NCBI GenBank assembly: GCA_045113315.1
Contig: JBGUIX010000014.1
Span: forward strand, 3,642 to 67,641
DNA: 64,000 nt
Direction of reading: 5' to 3'
Origin: Bacilli bacterium
GTDB taxonomy: Bacteria > Bacillota_I > Bacilli_A > RFN20 > CAG-826
Shown: positions 9,694 to 18,352 of the stretch, one piece after another
Layout of the letters: every line of letters begins with the position of its first letter
Position numbering within the stretch: position 1 is the first letter of the stretch
Notes under the pieces: generated by a model
What the model saw: the letters and a program-made list of their open reading frames with translations, nothing else
Database searches by the model: none
What the model was told of the DNA's origin: nothing
Position numbers and translations under genes: made by a program

Positions 9694-10546
9694 TAACGTC
9701 CACTTTTATGTCGGTTTTACTTTTATCGATGAATTGATCTTCCAAGATTAATTCTTTGATTTTATAAGCGTGGATCTTACCACTTATAGGATTCTTCACT
9801 GAATCAATTTCGGTGGTTACTTCAATATCTAAATCAGAGCAATATTCAAAGCATAAATCGGTATTTATTAATCGACAGTTAATCATCTTTAGATTTTCCA
9901 TATAACAAAATCCTTGATGGGATTCCACTGTACAGTTTACTAAAGTAATATTTTTAGAATTCCATCCGAAATATTCACCGATAATTGTGCAGTTAATTAA
10001 AGTAACATTTTCTGAATTCCAGAATGCATCTTTCGTGGTTAATGTAGAATTTCTGATTTTAATATTCTTTCCACCATCAAATGCGTAATTTCCTAATAAA
10101 GTTAAATTATCAATTTCAACATCTTCACTATTAAAACCGAAATAATCACCATTCGCGATTACTTTATTTAATCTAATACCGTTACATTTCCAAAATGTCT
10201 CATCTGCGTGAGGCATATCAACACTATTTAAAGTCACTTTTTCACTTCTTCTAAATGTTTTAGGAGCTTCAATAAGAGAATTATTGATTGTGATATTTTT
10301 GGTGTACCAAATGCCGCTTCTACCGGTATAAGTAATTTTACAGTCGTGGACTTCAACATCGTTACAATACCAAAGAGGATATTTCCAGTTAAATGTACTT
10401 CTAAAGATTTTTAATCTTTTAGATTCCTTAAGTGGAGATTCTCCATCTTCAAATAAACAGTCGAAGAACGTCAAATCTTCTGACGCAAACAAGGCTCTTT
10501 CACCAGTAAATCTTTCATTTCTATATTCCATATTATTTCCCACCAT
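9686..10546 (-). CDS. DUF3737-family protein (right-handed beta-helix repeats)
   Basis: 286 aa; repetitive N-x-T-hydrophobic-x-N-C beta-helix pattern; position downstream of metG is typical for DUF3737 in Firmicutes; alternative start at ATG 10531. Confidence 0.65.
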   Translation of the reverse strand: MVGNNMEYRNERFTGERALFASEDLTFFDCLFEDGESPLKESKRLKIFRSTFNWKYPLWYCNDVEVHDCKITYTGRSGIWYTKNITINNSLIEAPKTFRRSEKVTLNSVDMPHADETFWKCNGIRLNKVIANGDYFGFNSEDVEIDNLTLLGNYAFDGGKNIKIRNSTLTTKDAFWNSENVTLINCTIIGEYFGWNSKNITLVNCTVESHQGFCYMENLKMINCRLINTDLCFEYCSDLDIEVTTEIDSVKNPISGKIHAYKIKELILEDQFIDKSKTDIKVDVNE

Positions 10547-12128
10547 TCATCATGTTTTGGATGAATTCCACTTCTTTTTCCACTTCAAGTCTTGGGAATA
10601 ATTGGTCACCCTTATTTACTTTGACGTTACTAACACAACCAAAGTTATAAACATTTTGATATTTTAATAAATCGCCTTCGACGCCTAATTGAGCAAATAA
10701 TTTATCACTAGCTCTAGTTAATACTGGTTTTAATAGCATACCAGAAATATAAATAGCGTTGGCTAAATGATTCATCACACTAGCGAGTTCTTCTTTTTTA
10801 GATTCATCTTTGGCTAACGCCCAAGGTGTCGTCTCATCGATATATTTATTCGCTCTATTGACGAGTTCATTTACAGAAGCTATAGCTTCAGTAATCTTTA
10901 AATCATCCATTAGTGATTCATATTGTTTAACTACTTCTTTCGCAACACTTTCTAAATTACCATCGAAGTCTGTTACAACGCCTTTATAAGCGGGAACAAC
11001 ACCATCGAAGTATTTATTAATCATAGAAACTGTTCTATTTAATAGATTTCCTAAAGAATTAGCTAAATCACTATTTACTCTTTCGACAAATTGTTCAGGT
11101 GAGAAACTACCATCTTGCCCAAAAGTTATTTCTCTGGCTAAATAATATCTCACCGCGTCTAATCCAAAATGTTCCACAAGTGGATATGGATCAACAACAT
11201 TACCTTTAGATTTACTCATCTTACTATCTTTCATCATGAGTAAACCATGGATAAATTCACGATCTGGTTTTCTTAAACCTAAGCTTTCTAAAAACATCGG
11301 CCAATAAATCGCGTGGAATCTAGTGATATCCGCACCTAAAATATGAATGATTTCTGATTCTTCATCTTGCCAGAACTTATTAAATAATTCTGGATGATCA
11401 GAATCATAACCTAACGCAGTTATATAGTTAGTTAAAGCATCTAACCAAACATAAATAACATGTTTTTTATTTTCTCTAATTGGAATACCCCAAGAAAAAC
11501 TAGTTCTAGAAACGCATAGATCATCTAATCCTGGTTTAATAAAAGTATTAATCATTTCATTCTTACGAGATTCAGGAGTTAAGAACTTCGGGTTTTCGTC
11601 GTAGAACTTTAATAAAGCATCAACGTATTTCTTGGTTTTGAAGAAATAAGCTTCTTCTTCAGCGACTTGAACTGGTCTACCACAGTCTGGGCAAATATGA
11701 TCAGGACCCACTTGAGTATCAGTCCAGAAAGATTCACAAGGTGTACAATACCAACCTTTATATTTGCCTAAATAGATATCTCCTTTATTTAGCATTTTGG
11801 TGAAGATATCTTGAACCACTTTTGTGTGTCTTTCTTGTGTGGTTCTAATAAAATCATTATTTGAAATATCTAATAATTTCCATAACTTATGGAAACCTTC
11901 AACAATTTCATCCACAAACTCCTGAGGAGTTTTACCCGCTAAAGCGGCGTTCTTTTCAATTTTTTGTCCGTGTTCATCGGCTCCAGTTAAAAAGTAACAC
12001 TCAAAACCTCTGAGCCTTTTATAACGAGCAAAAATATCAGTTAAGACTGTGCAATAAGCATGACCGATATGTAGTTTCGCACTCGGATAATAAATCGGAG
12101 TGGTAATATAGAATCTTTTCTTTTCCAT
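10533..12128 (-). CDS. metG: Methionine--tRNA ligase (short form, no C-terminal tRNA-binding domain)
   Basis: 531 aa; HIGH motif (SAKLHIGHAY); KMSKS motif (KMSKSKGN); zinc knuckle CPDCG. Confidence 0.93.
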   Translation of the reverse strand: MEKKRFYITTPIYYPSAKLHIGHAYCTVLTDIFARYKRLRGFECYFLTGADEHGQKIEKNAALAGKTPQEFVDEIVEGFHKLWKLLDISNNDFIRTTQERHTKVVQDIFTKMLNKGDIYLGKYKGWYCTPCESFWTDTQVGPDHICPDCGRPVQVAEEEAYFFKTKKYVDALLKFYDENPKFLTPESRKNEMINTFIKPGLDDLCVSRTSFSWGIPIRENKKHVIYVWLDALTNYITALGYDSDHPELFNKFWQDEESEIIHILGADITRFHAIYWPMFLESLGLRKPDREFIHGLLMMKDSKMSKSKGNVVDPYPLVEHFGLDAVRYYLAREITFGQDGSFSPEQFVERVNSDLANSLGNLLNRTVSMINKYFDGVVPAYKGVVTDFDGNLESVAKEVVKQYESLMDDLKITEAIASVNELVNRANKYIDETTPWALAKDESKKEELASVMNHLANAIYISGMLLKPVLTRASDKLFAQLGVEGDLLKYQNVYNFGCVSNVKVNKGDQLFPRLEVEKEVEFIQNMMNGGK

Positions 12129-14728: not shown

Positions 14729-15517
14729 TTAGTGATTTGCGGCTTTTTTTGCTTTTCTTTTCTCAAAATAGGTCTTGATTCCAATAACTGAGAAATGGGT
14801 GATGAAAGCGGTACTAACATAAACGAACACCACGATTAATGTCCAAACAATGTTAGGTACATTTGAAGATATAAAGCCAAAGACTGGGAACGTGCTTCCA
14901 TCGTAGAAAAAGAAATAATCACATTTAGTAATGGCGTCGAATATATAGATAGAAATAGCCAATATTCCAAATACCGCTAAGCCGTAATAAATATCGTTCT
15001 TTTTAATGTCGTAATAACCTGTTACCAACATGATTAAAGGGATGATGACATCTAGTGCATGGTAGATTAAGGTGTGTTGACCAAAATATGACAAAGCAGA
15101 ATTGCCACCAGGGCAACCAACGAATAAAGTAATAAAGCCCATAATCATATTAACGATAACTAAATAGCTGGAAGCGCTTCTTTTGATAACTTCGTTTTTA
15201 CTAAATATCGCAAACGGAAAAATATAGACAGGCATCAAACAGGTATGTAAAGGTAACATTTTTTTCATATCAAATGGATATTCAGTTGGATTATTCGCGC
15301 TTCTAATATATAAAGAGATTAAATAGAAAGCTTCTGCCGCAATAAAAAGGATCCATAAACATATGAGAACTATAGTAATAGTTTTTCTACTTTTCTTTCT
15401 TAAATAGAAAGCGAGTAAGATTCCTAAAGAAATGTAAATAAAGATAAAAAGAAAATGATCCCATGTGAAGGCATAGGGTGGTTCTCTATTTAGCCAGTCA
15501 TCTACATAAACATTCAT
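14729..15517 (-). CDS. Integral membrane protein, YwaF/TIGR02206-like
   Basis: 262 aa; ~7 TM segments; PLHTC motif; start overlaps the stop of the upstream small ORF (ATGA-type coupling). Confidence 0.4.
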   Translation of the reverse strand: MNVYVDDWLNREPPYAFTWDHFLFIFIYISLGILLAFYLRKKSRKTITIVLICLWILFIAAEAFYLISLYIRSANNPTEYPFDMKKMLPLHTCLMPVYIFPFAIFSKNEVIKRSASSYLVIVNMIMGFITLFVGCPGGNSALSYFGQHTLIYHALDVIIPLIMLVTGYYDIKKNDIYYGLAVFGILAISIYIFDAITKCDYFFFYDGSTFPVFGFISSNVPNIVWTLIVVFVYVSTAFITHFSVIGIKTYFEKRKAKKAANH

Positions 15518-15792
15518 TTCTTATTTATTATATTCTCAATTTCTTCTTGATGAGTTTTATTATATTCCTCCCACCCATCAATTGTTTCTTCTTGTTCTTG
15601 TTCTATTTCGTAGGGTGGAATCTCACTATATATCTTTTTCATAAAGAAAAATTTCTTTCTTACTAATGTATATATTCCTAAGTCAGTCATTCTTTTGGCA
15701 AGGTGATCTGCAAATTCCACAGTTCTTGCGTAAAAAACAAATTTTAATTTCGATCTTTTGTCATAATAACGAAATTCATAAAACGTAAACAT
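15514..15792 (-). CDS. Small hypothetical protein (93 aa, acidic C-terminus)
   Basis: Internal ATG preceded by GAGGAGG at optimal spacing (the ORF track begins earlier at a TTG); non-repetitive protein-like composition; translationally coupled to the YwaF-like gene. Confidence 0.4.
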   Translation of the reverse strand: MFTFYEFRYYDKRSKLKFVFYARTVEFADHLAKRMTDLGIYTLVRKKFFFMKKIYSEIPPYEIEQEQEETIDGWEEYNKTHQEEIENIINKK

Positions 15793-15821
15793 CACTTTTA
15801 CCTCCTCAATTTTCCATAAAG

Positions 15822-15877
15822 AGATAAAAAATACTCCCATCGCTACGACGGGAGCAAATAAAAAGGTCCCATCGTAC
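15822..15877 (-). terminator. Strong intrinsic terminator (9-bp stem CTCCCGTCG/CGATGGGAG + U7) immediately upstream of the small gene's RBS, with an upstream near-copy of the 3' arm (attenuator-like)
   Basis: Minus strand reads gtaCGATGGGACcttttt atttg CTCCCGTCG tag CGATGGGAG tattttttatc. The upstream copy CGATGGGAC can pair with TCCCGTCG, an alternative antiterminator. No room for a promoter between terminator and RBS. Confidence 0.45.
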
Positions 15878-15994
15878 AAGCTTTGGCACCCAACATTACT
15901 TGGGTTGTCGGTGGGTCATAGGGCTTGTCCCTCGCCACACTCTTTATGGATGTATAAATTCTAACTTTATATTCCAAAATTAGCAATGCATTCA

Positions 15995-16747
15995 TCAGAA
16001 TATTTCATCCGGTAAATACCTCGTTTCTTGTACCATTAGTTTCCATTTGTTGTTTAACTTAGAATCACCAGCATGGCATTCGAAATAGACGATTGTTTTA
16101 CTAGAATGTTTTAAACAAAACTTGTAAAAATCGTTTGGTATTTCTTTCCCGAAATGTTTTTCAAATAAATATCCAATTTTTTGATAAAGCGTTTTCTTGT
16201 TATATCTTTCAAGTAAATACTTGATATCTTCTAAATTGAGTTTAGGGCAATGATCTAAAGCAAGCTCCACTTCTTCTAATCCACCGGCTAGAGAAGGTTC
16301 ATTTATACAATCTATAATTGCTCTTTCTAAAGATACAACGCGGATACCTTCTTCCATCATTCTGTCACGGACAAATAAATCGCATGTCGATTTTTTAGCT
16401 ATATATGTGACATCATCAAAATCAAAGTCACGTCGATGTGATTTGGTTAGGTAACTGAATGTGGAAACAAAAGATTGGGTTGCTAAGCCATAATATTCTA
16501 ACGCTTCATGGTATGAAAAATATGAATCTTCAAATAATCTGCTCGCAATTTGAAATTTAGAAGCGAAAATAAAACCAGTAGATGGATTTACTAAAGCATA
16601 CAAACCCTTTTTTATCTGTTTAATGTCGCCTTTTTTCATAGCGCGGTAAACAAATAGAGAAAAAGCGGATGGTGTTTTATACTCATCTTTTAAATCATTA
16701 TATGAGAAGAGTTTAGGCAATCTTTTCATATATAAGATTTTATCCAT
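15995..16747 (-). CDS. AbiEi-like antitoxin-family winged-HTH protein (type IV TA / abortive infection AbiEi N-domain-like)
   Basis: N-terminal LFSYNDLKDEYKTPSAFSLFVYRAMKKGDIKQIKKGLYALV fits the AbiEi_4 pattern (F..DL....LxRLxxxGxLxRxxRGVY). Start taken at the ATG for MDKILY; the ORF track extends to 16837. No AbiEii nucleotidyltransferase gene adjacent. Confidence 0.5.
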   Translation of the reverse strand: MDKILYMKRLPKLFSYNDLKDEYKTPSAFSLFVYRAMKKGDIKQIKKGLYALVNPSTGFIFASKFQIASRLFEDSYFSYHEALEYYGLATQSFVSTFSYLTKSHRRDFDFDDVTYIAKKSTCDLFVRDRMMEEGIRVVSLERAIIDCINEPSLAGGLEEVELALDHCPKLNLEDIKYLLERYNKKTLYQKIGYLFEKHFGKEIPNDFYKFCLKHSSKTIVYFECHAGDSKLNNKWKLMVQETRYLPDEIF

Positions 16748-16803
16748 ATTATTTCGTTTTTGCAATATTATGGTATTTTTTTGATATATGTTTATTTGCG
16801 TCA

Positions 16804-17466
16804 TCATATTATTTGTATAATGTTTTGAAATAAGCATGTTTTATTATTATCTATCTTCCGATCGAAATGATAATGACCACAAAACCAGTGTTTATAAGAA
16901 ACAACTTTATCTATAAACATTAACTGATCTGTACAAATATCTCGTCTAAAACCAAATGCTTTGATCACTGTTTTAGTATCAATACAATGGGTAAGCACAT
17001 AATCCACTTTATCATCAAATTTAGCTAGATTATTTAAAGCATTATCAATATCGTGTTGATTTATTTCCTCTTCTGGCCACCAAGAGACATAAGGTATGCG
17101 ATATAGCTTATCAATAGAAGTTGCTCCACCAATACATAAAAACTTTTTATTTTCTAATATTAATATCTCTCCTCTTAATATATGAAAGATGTGCTCATCG
17201 ATTTGATGCATCAATGCATTTTTAAATTCGACCAAGGGAAACGTGTTTAATAATTCAAAGTTTTCATGATTACCATCAATATACAAAATTGTACAGCCTA
17301 TACTTCTATAAAGGTTTTTATAATACTCTAATTCTCCAACGGACCATACAATTGCGGCGTCACCTAAAATGATTAAATAATCTTCAAAGCTAAGATTCAT
17401 TTCCTTTAACGCTTGAAGCTTTTTAAAATCAACATGACCATGTGTATCTCCAGTGATAAAAATCAT
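16804..17466 (-). CDS. Calcineurin-like metallophosphoesterase
   Basis: 220 aa; motifs GDTHG, GD, GNHE, H..H (FCGHYHFD). Confidence 0.8.
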   Translation of the reverse strand: MIFITGDTHGHVDFKKLQALKEMNLSFEDYLIILGDAAIVWSVGELEYYKNLYRSIGCTILYIDGNHENFELLNTFPLVEFKNALMHQIDEHIFHILRGEILILENKKFLCIGGATSIDKLYRIPYVSWWPEEEINQHDIDNALNNLAKFDDKVDYVLTHCIDTKTVIKAFGFRRDICTDQLMFIDKVVSYKHWFCGHYHFDRKIDNNKTCLFQNIIQII

Positions 17467-17638
17467 TTATACCAATGCCGTGTTCTTTTTCCTTTCTAAG
17501 CACATATTTTCATAATAAAAATAGGTCGTCAATAGACCACCTAAAGTTACCTTATAATAATTATATTAACTACCCTATATTATATATAAAACCTGTAATT
17601 ATAATTATATATAAGGTAATTTTTTTATTTTTTAACGA

Positions 17639-18352
17639 TTAGATAATAAAGAATAAAGACACCGCGATCATGAATTGAGCGATGTAATATAAAAGATGGT
17701 TAGTGATGATAAATACTGGTCCAGAAAACCCGGGAGCAAAATAAGTATTATTTAAAATCAGATCAGAGGCCATAAATAAGATAAAGGCAATCGCCATTAA
17801 AGTAATTGTCACAACCTGGAAATGAGTTTGTATCGCTACTGACATATAGATGGAAGTGGTAAAGAATAAGAATAATCCATAGATTAAAACAAACGGTTTC
17901 ATCTTCTGATATCTAACTTTAGATACCTTTTCCATTAATAATGTCGCGACTGTTAAAAGAATAGTGACAATAATAGGAATAATTAAATATAAAATATTTG
18001 AATTAAAATCGTAATAATTAAGGAATAATCCTAAAGTAAAAAATAGATGTCCAAAAGCAAAAGAGAAGAAACCTAATATTGTATAAAACATCTCTTTAGA
18101 TAAAACGATATATTTTAAATCTAGGAAAATATCTCCTAATAAACCGAAGAATAATCCCACTAAAACAAATATTCCAAAATTAGATTGAGGGTTTTTAGAA
18201 GTTAAATAGGCCACTAACCCAGTCACAATAAAGGAAAAAGAAACAAGTCCTTTAATAATGACTGCAACCACTCTTTTTTCTTTACTACGGAAATAAAGAA
18301 ATGGTAAAAGAGTGATAACTCCTAATATTAATGGAATGAGAAAAAATAACAT
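17639..18352 (-). CDS. Polytopic membrane protein (8 TM), possibly YhhN/lysoplasmalogenase-like
   Basis: 237 aa, highly hydrophobic; family assignment tentative. Confidence 0.35.
   Translation of the reverse strand: MLFFLIPLILGVITLLPFLYFRSKEKRVVAVIIKGLVSFSFIVTGLVAYLTSKNPQSNFGIFVLVGLFFGLLGDIFLDLKYIVLSKEMFYTILGFFSFAFGHLFFTLGLFLNYYDFNSNILYLIIPIIVTILLTVATLLMEKVSKVRYQKMKPFVLIYGLFLFFTTSIYMSVAIQTHFQVVTITLMAIAFILFMASDLILNNTYFAPGFSGPVFIITNHLLYYIAQFMIAVSLFFII

Follow-up and report, generated by a model that had tools for sequence, protein, structure and literature searches.

A predicted SAM-I riboswitch without P4 probably shuts off an orphan reading frame and a YwaF-like gene when S-adenosylmethionine is plentiful

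On the minus strand of the 64,000-nucleotide stretch of DNA analysed here (the window), the short interval between an AbiEi-like gene and a small reading frame resembles an orphan transcription attenuator, which raises the question of what signal it senses and whether that signal turns the genes behind it on or off. The leader and the genes that it precedes are laid out as follows.

15995, minus strand: stop of the AbiEi-like gene
15986-15958, minus strand: promoter-like site TTGCTA-17-TAGAAT, inferred from a consensus scan (9/12 matches)
15986-15981, minus strand: -35 element of that site, TTGCTA
15963-15958, minus strand: -10 element of that site, TAGAAT
15832-15856, minus strand: intrinsic terminator hairpin of 11 bp (15856-15846 with 15842-15832, loop UAG), from a terminator scan
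15831-15826, minus strand: U6 tract of the terminator, also part of the anti-Shine-Dalgarno (anti-SD) strand
15801-15807, minus strand: Shine-Dalgarno (SD) sequence GAGGAGG, 8 nt 5' of the ATG at 15792
15514-15792, minus strand: orphan ORF of 92 amino acids (ATG at 15792), its stop overlapping the YwaF start (ATGA)
14729-15517, minus strand: YwaF/TMEM164-family membrane protein of 262 amino acids, the distal regulated gene (PF14808, E = 2.9e-14; homologues)

The 205-nt leader folds better than all 200 of its dinucleotide shuffles (z = -4.0). A preliminary description of the locus had reported a strong minus-strand terminator, and the terminator scan found it, with a stem that even reaches 11 bp (-17.1 kcal/mol) and a core in which CUCCCGUCG (15854-15846) pairs with CGAUGGGAG (15842-15834). 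Two of its measurements needed correction, as the U run is U6 (15831-15826) rather than U7, and 18 nt rather than about 5 separate its end from GAGGAGG. The same description saw no room for a promoter, which holds between the terminator and the ribosome-binding site (RBS) but not for the leader as a whole, as the promoter-like site at 15986-15958 lies just 5' of the aptamer described below. Between this site and the terminator hairpin lies a GC-rich stretch of about 90 nt.

This part of the leader matched the SAM-I family of Rfam (RF00162) on the minus strand at 15952-15834, along the whole of the model (1-108) and with an E-value of 4e-9 on the local region. At 45.8 bits the match is barely above the gathering score of 44.4 bits; it is the sole Rfam family match within the 64-kb window, and SAM-I was the best-scoring member of its clan, outscoring an overlapping clan member. 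Judged by its sequence, the leader is a member of the SAM-I (S-box) riboswitch class RF00162, and its ligand is almost certainly S-adenosylmethionine (SAM). The preliminary description had proposed a riboswitch or a protein-mediated attenuator of unknown ligand. The riboswitch-type leader stands and needs no protein, and the ligand class is no longer open because the SAM-I alignment, above the gathering score, accounts for the GC-rich element. T-box, protein-mediated and leader-peptide attenuation were considered and rejected, as the SAM-I match explains the conserved GC-rich core. The alignment resolves the following parts.

15946-15952, minus strand: P1 5' strand CAUCCAU (Rfam alignments and pair counts)
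15940-15945, minus strand: J1/2, AAAGAG (SAM-I consensus AAGAG; cmscan alignment)
15911-15938, minus strand: P2 with a K-turn motif, GUGG-CGA-GGG ... CCC-UAUGA-CCAC (cmscan alignment and direct reading)
15885-15909, minus strand: P3 (GACAACCCAA / UUGGGUGCC) with a bulged A and the pocket-lining A-U and C-G pairs (cmscan alignment)
15877-15884, minus strand: J3/4, AAAG, then the pseudoknot 3' strand CUUG at 15880-15877 (cmscan alignment)
15866-15876, minus strand: copy 1, UACGAUGGGAC, the P1 3' strand of a P4-less aptamer or the antiterminator 5' strand (cmscan of the truncated region; covariation)

The predicted start of transcription is a few nucleotides from the P1 5' strand, and two relatives described below have a -10-like element at an equal distance from P1 (TGcTATAAT in L038 and TAATAT in L033). 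P2 with its K-turn corresponds to GUGGCGAGGGA...CCCUAUGACCCAC in the Rfam alignment, and its GA/UGA motif agrees with the SAM-I consensus; P3 corresponds to GACAACCC...GGGUGCC. The P2 loop CAAG (15927-15924) is the 5' strand of a pseudoknot with CUUG (15880-15877), for which up to 6 bp are possible and which is kept in all relatives. The preliminary description had taken ACAAGC and GCTTGT for P1. Both elements are present and complementary (15928-15923 and 15881-15876), but they form the SAM-I pseudoknot between the P2 loop and J3/4, and P1 instead uses CAUCCAU (15952-15946). J1/2, which includes the conserved ligand-contacting G, is invariant in 20 of 20 family members. The positions that we take to be the pocket contacts of the established SAM-I crystal structures all agree with the consensus: this G, in P3 the bulged A together with the A-U and C-G pairs, and the uppermost A-U/U-A pairs of P1. 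The sole deviation near the pocket is an A.C mismatch at the second P3 pair (A15908, C15886), where the consensus has a conserved G-C, and it is common to the whole sub-family. An association with genes of methionine, cysteine or SAM metabolism or transport, typical of SAM-I though no structural requirement, was not found downstream here.

How P1 is closed bears directly on the direction of switching. Copy 1 and the terminator 3' arm both read CGAUGGGA. As either is complementary to both the terminator 5' arm and the P1 5' strand, two arrangements of the four strands are possible. In Fold X, copy 1 is the partner of the P1 5' strand and the terminator forms; in Fold Y, the 5' arm engages copy 1 and the 3' arm engages the P1 5' strand. 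The first leaves P1 with only 5 bp (AUGGG at 15872-15868 with UCCAU at 15950-15946) and a 3' strand only 3 nt from the pseudoknot strand, and in the window the pairing of P1 with the 3' arm extends past one mismatch. For the antiterminator, the preliminary description had proposed that a near-copy of the 3' arm, about 25 nt upstream, pairs with the 5' arm. The pairing holds, as UACGAUGGGA (15876-15867) forms a covarying 10-bp helix with the 5' arm (15853-15844) at -13.8 kcal/mol, but the starts of the near-copy and the 3' arm lie 32 nt apart. The terminator and the antiterminator are thus both present and covary, and copy 1 is shared by P1 and the antiterminator.

The Rfam alignment of the window corresponds to Fold Y, in which the antiterminator stands in for a long "P4" and the P1 3' strand is supplied by the terminator 3' arm. 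With the 3' arm removed, RF00162 still scored 41.2 bits over the full model length with P4 deleted, which is Fold X. P1, P2 and P3 are present either way, and P4 is deleted in one alignment and mimicked by the antiterminator in the other. For the window sequence, the Fold Y alignment is better by 4.6 bits and the nearest-neighbour energies are nearly equal (-32.1 against -30.4 to -33.5 kcal/mol); the covariance model cannot choose between the two folds for this sequence. The seven alleles of the locus (the window, L001 and L022-L026) are also too alike to tell the two P1 assignments apart.

A wider family was obtained with a degenerate pattern on the aptamer core, the P3 A.C mismatch (A43) included, which retrieved 17 metagenomic loci. 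Members of the sub-family lie in low-GC Bacilli/Erysipelotrichaceae-like genomes of rumen and gut, and the pattern had no match in a viral collection, so there is no evidence of phage origin. Fifteen of the 17 relatives scored 46-58 bits against RF00162 (52-58 bits for group 1, L035 and L036), the exceptions being L038 and L042, which fall below the gathering score. These two carry an aptamer 97.7% identical to that of the window, before an unrelated 84-amino-acid ORF and on contigs of equal GC content, which points to a recent duplication. The relatives' RF00162 matches are all 89-95 nt long, as the P4-less alignment gives, and in all four of the relatives' alignments listed P4 is deleted and copy 1 serves as the P1 3' strand. 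Wherever a locus reaches through the expression platform (L031 ends too early), its parts come in the same order: pseudoknot strand, 3 nt, copy 1, a variable insert (often a small hairpin), terminator 5' arm, a loop of 3-4 nt, 3' arm and U run.

Base pairs were counted between fixed segments in a gapless alignment of 20 distinct leaders, with 500 shuffles per helix; as the leaders are mutually related and the segments were hand-chosen, the following numbers lend support but are not rigorous.

Antiterminator: 84% of cells paired; 6 compensatory pairs; 0 of 500 shuffles reach the covariation score
Terminator: 90% of cells paired; 4 compensatory pairs; 0 of 500 shuffles
P1 with copy 1: 71% of cells paired; 1 compensatory pair, in a single cell; 360 of 500 shuffles
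P1 with the 3' arm: 86% of cells paired; 0 compensatory pairs; 500 of 500 shuffles
Long-range helix (described below): 84% of cells paired; 2 compensatory pairs; 1 of 500 shuffles

On the strength of these counts and their compensatory changes across the 20 leaders, we consider that the terminator and antiterminator helices are real. We also take to be right the earlier claim that the small ORF and the YwaF-like gene rely on read-through for their expression. Neither version of P1 is supported by compensatory change among the 20 leaders, that with copy 1 having its single cell only. The percentage paired was reached by 481 of 500 shuffles for P1 with copy 1 and by 7 of 500 for P1 with the 3' arm; in its five core pairs P1 is as good with one partner as with the other, and the 3' arm merely extends further. 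Two relatives pair copy 1 poorly with the P1 5' strand, L027 through a G-to-U change and L033 through a bulge.

A further set of pairings came from the region between the terminator and the start codon.

15813-15830, minus strand: anti-SD segment (complementarity, shuffles, conservation in relatives)

The anti-SD strand (15830-15817) can form 14 bp with the SD region (15808-15795), at -12.8 kcal/mol. When growing transcripts were folded, a competing pairing surfaced: UCCAUAAAGAG, which spans the P1 5' strand and J1/2 (15950-15940), is a perfect 11-nt complement of CUCUUUAUGGA (15823-15813). CAUCCAU accordingly has three possible partners: copy 1, the terminator 3' arm and, when joined by J1/2, the anti-SD segment. 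This long-range helix is the longest Watson-Crick complement in the leader, and one of at least 11 nt arose in only 10 of 2,000 dinucleotide shuffles. Among the 20 distinct leaders, 17 have 10-12 bp of it, and L036 and L037 have 6-7 bp; L035 and L038/L042 lack it. The window (CCAU/AUGG) and the main group of relatives (CUAU/AUAG) differ by a compensatory change in this helix. Because it consumes J1/2, it is incompatible with a ligand-bound aptamer, and because it also frees the SD, translation should go with the absence of ligand.

The reading that we prefer, with a probability of about two in three, is a P4-less SAM-I variant that acts as a classical terminator/antiterminator OFF switch with a second, translational layer; the small orphan gene and the YwaF-like gene would most likely be shut off when SAM is plentiful. 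Transcription would start a few nucleotides 5' of CAUCCAU, and P2 with its K-turn, P3 and the pseudoknot would fold first. With SAM, AUGGG (15872-15868) would close P1 with UCCAU (15950-15946) and the ligand would lock this helix, leaving the 5' arm free to pair with the 3' arm, and RNA polymerase would stop at U6 (15831-15826). We propose that CAUCCAU thereby acts as an anti-antiterminator. Without SAM, the 10-bp antiterminator (15876-15867 with 15853-15844) would displace the 5-bp P1 and could not be converted to the terminator in time, leaving the RNA in the read-through form. The P1 5' strand and J1/2 (15950-15940) of this RNA would then pair with CUCUUUAUGGA (15823-15813) and unmask the RBS, allowing translation of the 92-amino-acid ORF and, through the ATGA overlap, of the YwaF-like gene. 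In any full-length RNA occupied by SAM, the anti-SD strand (15830-15817) would mask GAGGAGG. Fold Y, with the antiterminator as P4, would be the read-through conformer and not the form in which SAM acts on termination.

Direct-path estimates of the barriers are consistent with this order of events, in an energy model that ignores the pseudoknot, tertiary contacts and the ligand. Passage from P1 with copy 1 to the antiterminator has to cross 6.0 kcal/mol, and passage from the antiterminator to the terminator 13.3 kcal/mol, or 16.2 kcal/mol when the 3' arm is also held by the P1 5' strand, so ligand-free RNA would be trapped in the read-through form. As the SD-masked form is favoured at equilibrium even without ligand, the OFF model depends on co-transcriptional kinetics. 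For transcription to agree in sign with translation, SAM must promote termination, as in Fold X. That fold is structurally credible, because natural SAM-I riboswitches with a very short or no P4 are reported to function and to respond to SAM, although affinity falls as P4 shortens (PMC12714719), and SAM-IV is also without a P4 in its junction (PMC6890682).

An opposite sign of control, in which the four-way Fold Y is the ligand-bound form and SAM dismantles the terminator to allow read-through, is unlikely in our judgement, although several features fit it. Fold Y is the optimal Rfam alignment of the window (45.8 bits), and the P1 5' strand is paired in more cells with the terminator 3' arm than with copy 1 (86% versus 71%), copy 1 being defective in L027 and L033. 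In the 3' arm, GAUGGG is preceded by a C in every case, including L033 and L038, where the terminator leaves that C unpaired, and this C could form the conserved pair with the G of AAAG; the helix of copy 1 with the 5' arm also ends in a variable distal hairpin, as expected of a structural P4. However, such an aptamer would be complete only once the 3' arm had emerged, with polymerase already on the U run, leaving no time window for sensing the ligand, and the pre-formed helix of copy 1 with the 5' arm would be a trap of 13-16 kcal/mol that makes read-through constitutive. A SAM-bound aptamer would moreover free the anti-SD strand to mask the SD, turning transcription on and translation off, whereas the conserved long-range helix makes sense only in a ligand-free read-through RNA. 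The P4 deletion, with copy 1 as the P1 3' strand, in four of four listed alignments of relatives also speaks against it. A literature search for SAM-I ON switches returned nothing relevant.

Among known systems, the leader is close to classical SAM-I riboswitches such as Bacillus subtilis yitJ and Thermoanaerobacter tengcongensis metF. These have the same P1, P2 K-turn, P3, pseudoknot, J1/2 AAGAG and pocket, and the same platform, where one strand serves both as the 3' side of P1 and as the 5' side of the antiterminator, ahead of an intrinsic terminator. Unlike them, the leader has, in the fold that we prefer, no P4 inside the junction, and it has the P3 A.C mismatch; it precedes an orphan ORF of 92 amino acids and a YwaF/TMEM164 gene rather than methionine, cysteine or SAM genes; and it would add a layer of SD masking with a long-range anti-anti-SD helix. 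A P4-less SAM-I group in Actinomycetota (PMC12714719), to which we liken it by published description, has the same P4 deletion and keeps the rest of the core, whereas the hosts here are low-GC Bacilli or Erysipelotrichaceae-like bacteria and control would be by transcription termination. Translational SAM-I riboswitches, such as SAM-I Xcc of Xanthomonas campestris (PMC7270179) and those with an SD in or near the P1 3' strand (PMC2258182), share the ligand-dependent masking of the SD, but here masking would be a second layer 3' of the terminator, relieved by the aptamer's own 5' strand. SAM-IV and SAM-I/IV, of the same Rfam clan (CL00012), have the same ligand-pocket architecture; they have no K-turn of the SAM-I type, their P1 is followed by a hairpin, and a second pseudoknot, PK-2, involves the P3 loop. 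Inspection of the leader found no downstream complement to its P3 loop GUAAUG, and membership in either family was rejected on the missing PK-2 complement, the K-turn and the best score going to SAM-I.

Little is familiar about the genes that the switch would control. The coupling of the small gene to a YwaF-like gene, part of the preliminary description, is supported by the ATGA overlap and the PF14808 match, and a literature search returned nothing relevant linking YwaF to riboswitches. The 92-amino-acid ORF had no match in Pfam, NCBIfam, PHROGs or PADLOC, and its homologues form a single 90%-identity cluster among 5.8 billion proteins. Differences among the seven alleles show an excess at third codon positions (7-9 of 15-16), the ORF is frameshifted in some strains, and its AlphaFold model (pLDDT 51) is too poor for a fold search. 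It has no similarity to the 84-amino-acid ORF behind the paralogous aptamer. Downstream of the relatives' aptamers we found an FGase-like protein (PF05013) and unknown proteins of 84-324 amino acids, the latter with no match at E <= 0.001 in Pfam, NCBIfam, PHROGs or PADLOC; behind the L033 aptamer no clear gene follows. Across the family, none of the downstream genes is one for methionine, cysteine or SAM metabolism. The idea that the downstream orphans are defence genes induced by a fall in SAM was unsupported, PADLOC having found no defence-family match. Several of the relatives' contigs also carry genes for XRE-type regulators.

Such company might suggest that the aptamer has altered its specificity and senses a relative of SAM, such as its by-product SAH, or another metabolite. 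All 17 relatives with the A43 pattern precede orphan or atypical genes and no methionine, cysteine or SAM gene, and the deviation from the conserved G-C pair adjoins the ligand pocket. We regard this as improbable, slightly more so than the ON switch, as all known SAM-I contact nucleotides are retained, and A43 was imposed by the search pattern, making its gene association partly circular.

To follow the history of the switch, we compared orthologous loci. The window itself derives from an uncultured "Bacilli bacterium" of the rumen. The closest genome contig, from the goat-omasum metagenome-assembled genome RGIG2675 (L001), is about 96% identical to the window. In this and four further loci (L022, L023, L024 and L025) the riboswitch directly follows yhhN; the window's Metallophos and AbiEi genes (17616-15974) represent an insertion that 96%-identical relatives lack while retaining the riboswitch, and L026 has an AbiEii-containing module at the same place. 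A terminator that merely ends the AbiEi-like transcript was rejected on these grounds. In L016, YwaF is 84% identical and the gene order the same, but the gap between yhhN and ywaF is only 50 nt, and the contig has neither the riboswitch nor the small ORF. No SAM element was found at 14 further YwaF loci (L002-L015, as listed), and a motif regex scan of YwaF loci matched only the window and L001. With no SAM match at these 14 loci and only a 50-nt spacer in L016, the riboswitch is not a general regulator of YwaF. The absence of both riboswitch and ORF from L016, and of a SAM element from the further loci, therefore indicates a lineage-specific insertion in which the two were acquired together, and recently.

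Among the seven alleles, 86-87 of the 87 aptamer nucleotides are identical, the sole internal variation being an A/G difference in the P3 loop, whereas the adjacent ORF differs at about 5.5% of positions; this higher conservation of the aptamer speaks for selection acting on the RNA. A decaying or non-regulatory relic, its hairpin only terminating upstream AbiEi/yhhN transcription, is the least probable reading, for although the Rfam score is marginal, the insertion recent and lineage-specific, the small ORF frameshifted in some strains and L033 without a clear downstream gene, the aptamer has 0-1 change per 87 nt against about 5.5% in neighbouring coding sequence, the riboswitch persists in relatives without the AbiEi insertion, the alternative helices covary across the family and a nearly identical copy is kept before another gene.

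These results assign a ligand and a candidate mechanism to an apparent orphan attenuator, and reveal a SAM-I riboswitch newly recruited, together with an orphan ORF, before a gene that an 84%-identical relative expresses without one. If the element is an ordinary OFF switch, its general significance is modest. Its less common features would be the missing P4, the combination of transcriptional and translational control through a long-range helix, and the recent recruitment to non-methionine genes. The sub-family is a convenient natural system for studying the minimal size of SAM-I and the spread of a riboswitch to new genes, and lets one ask what ties orphan proteins and YwaF/TMEM164 to SAM levels. 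A bolder and doubtful interpretation is that it is no ordinary methionine regulator but a recently duplicating sensor module placed before orphan accessory genes, which responds to a non-SAM ligand, reads a fall in SAM as a signal of stress or infection, or works as an ON switch. We also observed that the riboswitch adjoins an insertion hot spot carrying AbiE modules.

Two of the 17 metagenomic loci that we found with a degenerate pattern on the aptamer core, L038 and L042, carry an 86-nt aptamer that is 97.7% identical to that of the window and scores below the Rfam gathering threshold:

L038 725-777, minus strand, aptamer core
L042 5706-5758, minus strand, aptamer core

The gene behind both copies is an 84-aa orphan ORF unrelated to the one in the window, their contigs have the same GC content (0.35) and their expression platform differs. 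Together, these features of the sequences suggest a recent duplication of the aptamer. Across the 17 loci as a whole (L027-L043), nearly identical promoter-riboswitch-leader cassettes lie ahead of at least four unrelated orphan genes. Representative intervals, with coordinates in the orientation of each locus's riboswitch, are:

L029 1384-2199
L032 84-899
L036 198-1013

A conserved 271-aa XRE-type HTH protein is encoded on three of these contigs, and the overall layout is reminiscent of accessory genes that have been shuffled behind a single sensor.

We also analysed the genomic context of the riboswitch in the window, in which the following features are relevant:

10533-12128, minus strand, methionyl-tRNA synthetase
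14729-15517, YwaF (TMEM164-like)
15974-17616, minus strand, 1.6-kb Metallophos and AbiEi block (AbiEi 15995-16837; Metallophos 16804-17466)
17639-18352, YhhN (TMEM86-like)

The AbiEi protein has a PADLOC match with E = 2e-56, and no AbiEii partner adjoins it. Relatives that are 96% identical (L001 and L022) do not contain the block, and in a further relative, L026, the same site is taken by an AbiEii-containing module. On sequence comparison, the interval between yhhN and the riboswitch appears to be a hot spot for insertions. The adjacent YhhN and YwaF membrane-protein genes are syntenic in all close relatives (L016 and L022-L025). As the human counterparts of both proteins act on ether lipids, the two may have a shared, predicted lipid-related role. 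The methionyl-tRNA synthetase gene is on the same strand, approximately 2.6 kb past the end of the YwaF gene, and had no SAM or T-box match of its own in an Rfam scan of the window.

At L001, the small ORF ahead of YwaF has an allele with one extra A in an A-run (2870-2885; proteins P0122 and P0124), which leaves a truncated product of 55 or 71 aa. From its sequence, this allele would uncouple the small ORF from the YwaF start. It is present on seven contigs and is therefore probably real strain variation rather than a single assembly error.

In L003, from the uncultured Erysipelotrichaceae RUG13091, we observed three copies of the cow-rumen-1 RNA motif (Rfam RF02946; 70-83 bits), an RNA of unknown function:

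L003 2219-2279, cow-rumen-1
L003 2527-2587, cow-rumen-1
L003 2849-2908, cow-rumen-1

The approximately 900-nt stretch that holds them has no ORF above approximately 65 aa and lies directly upstream of a YwaF homologue (ATG at 2980). A gene of the YwaF family in another lineage therefore follows a different structured RNA.
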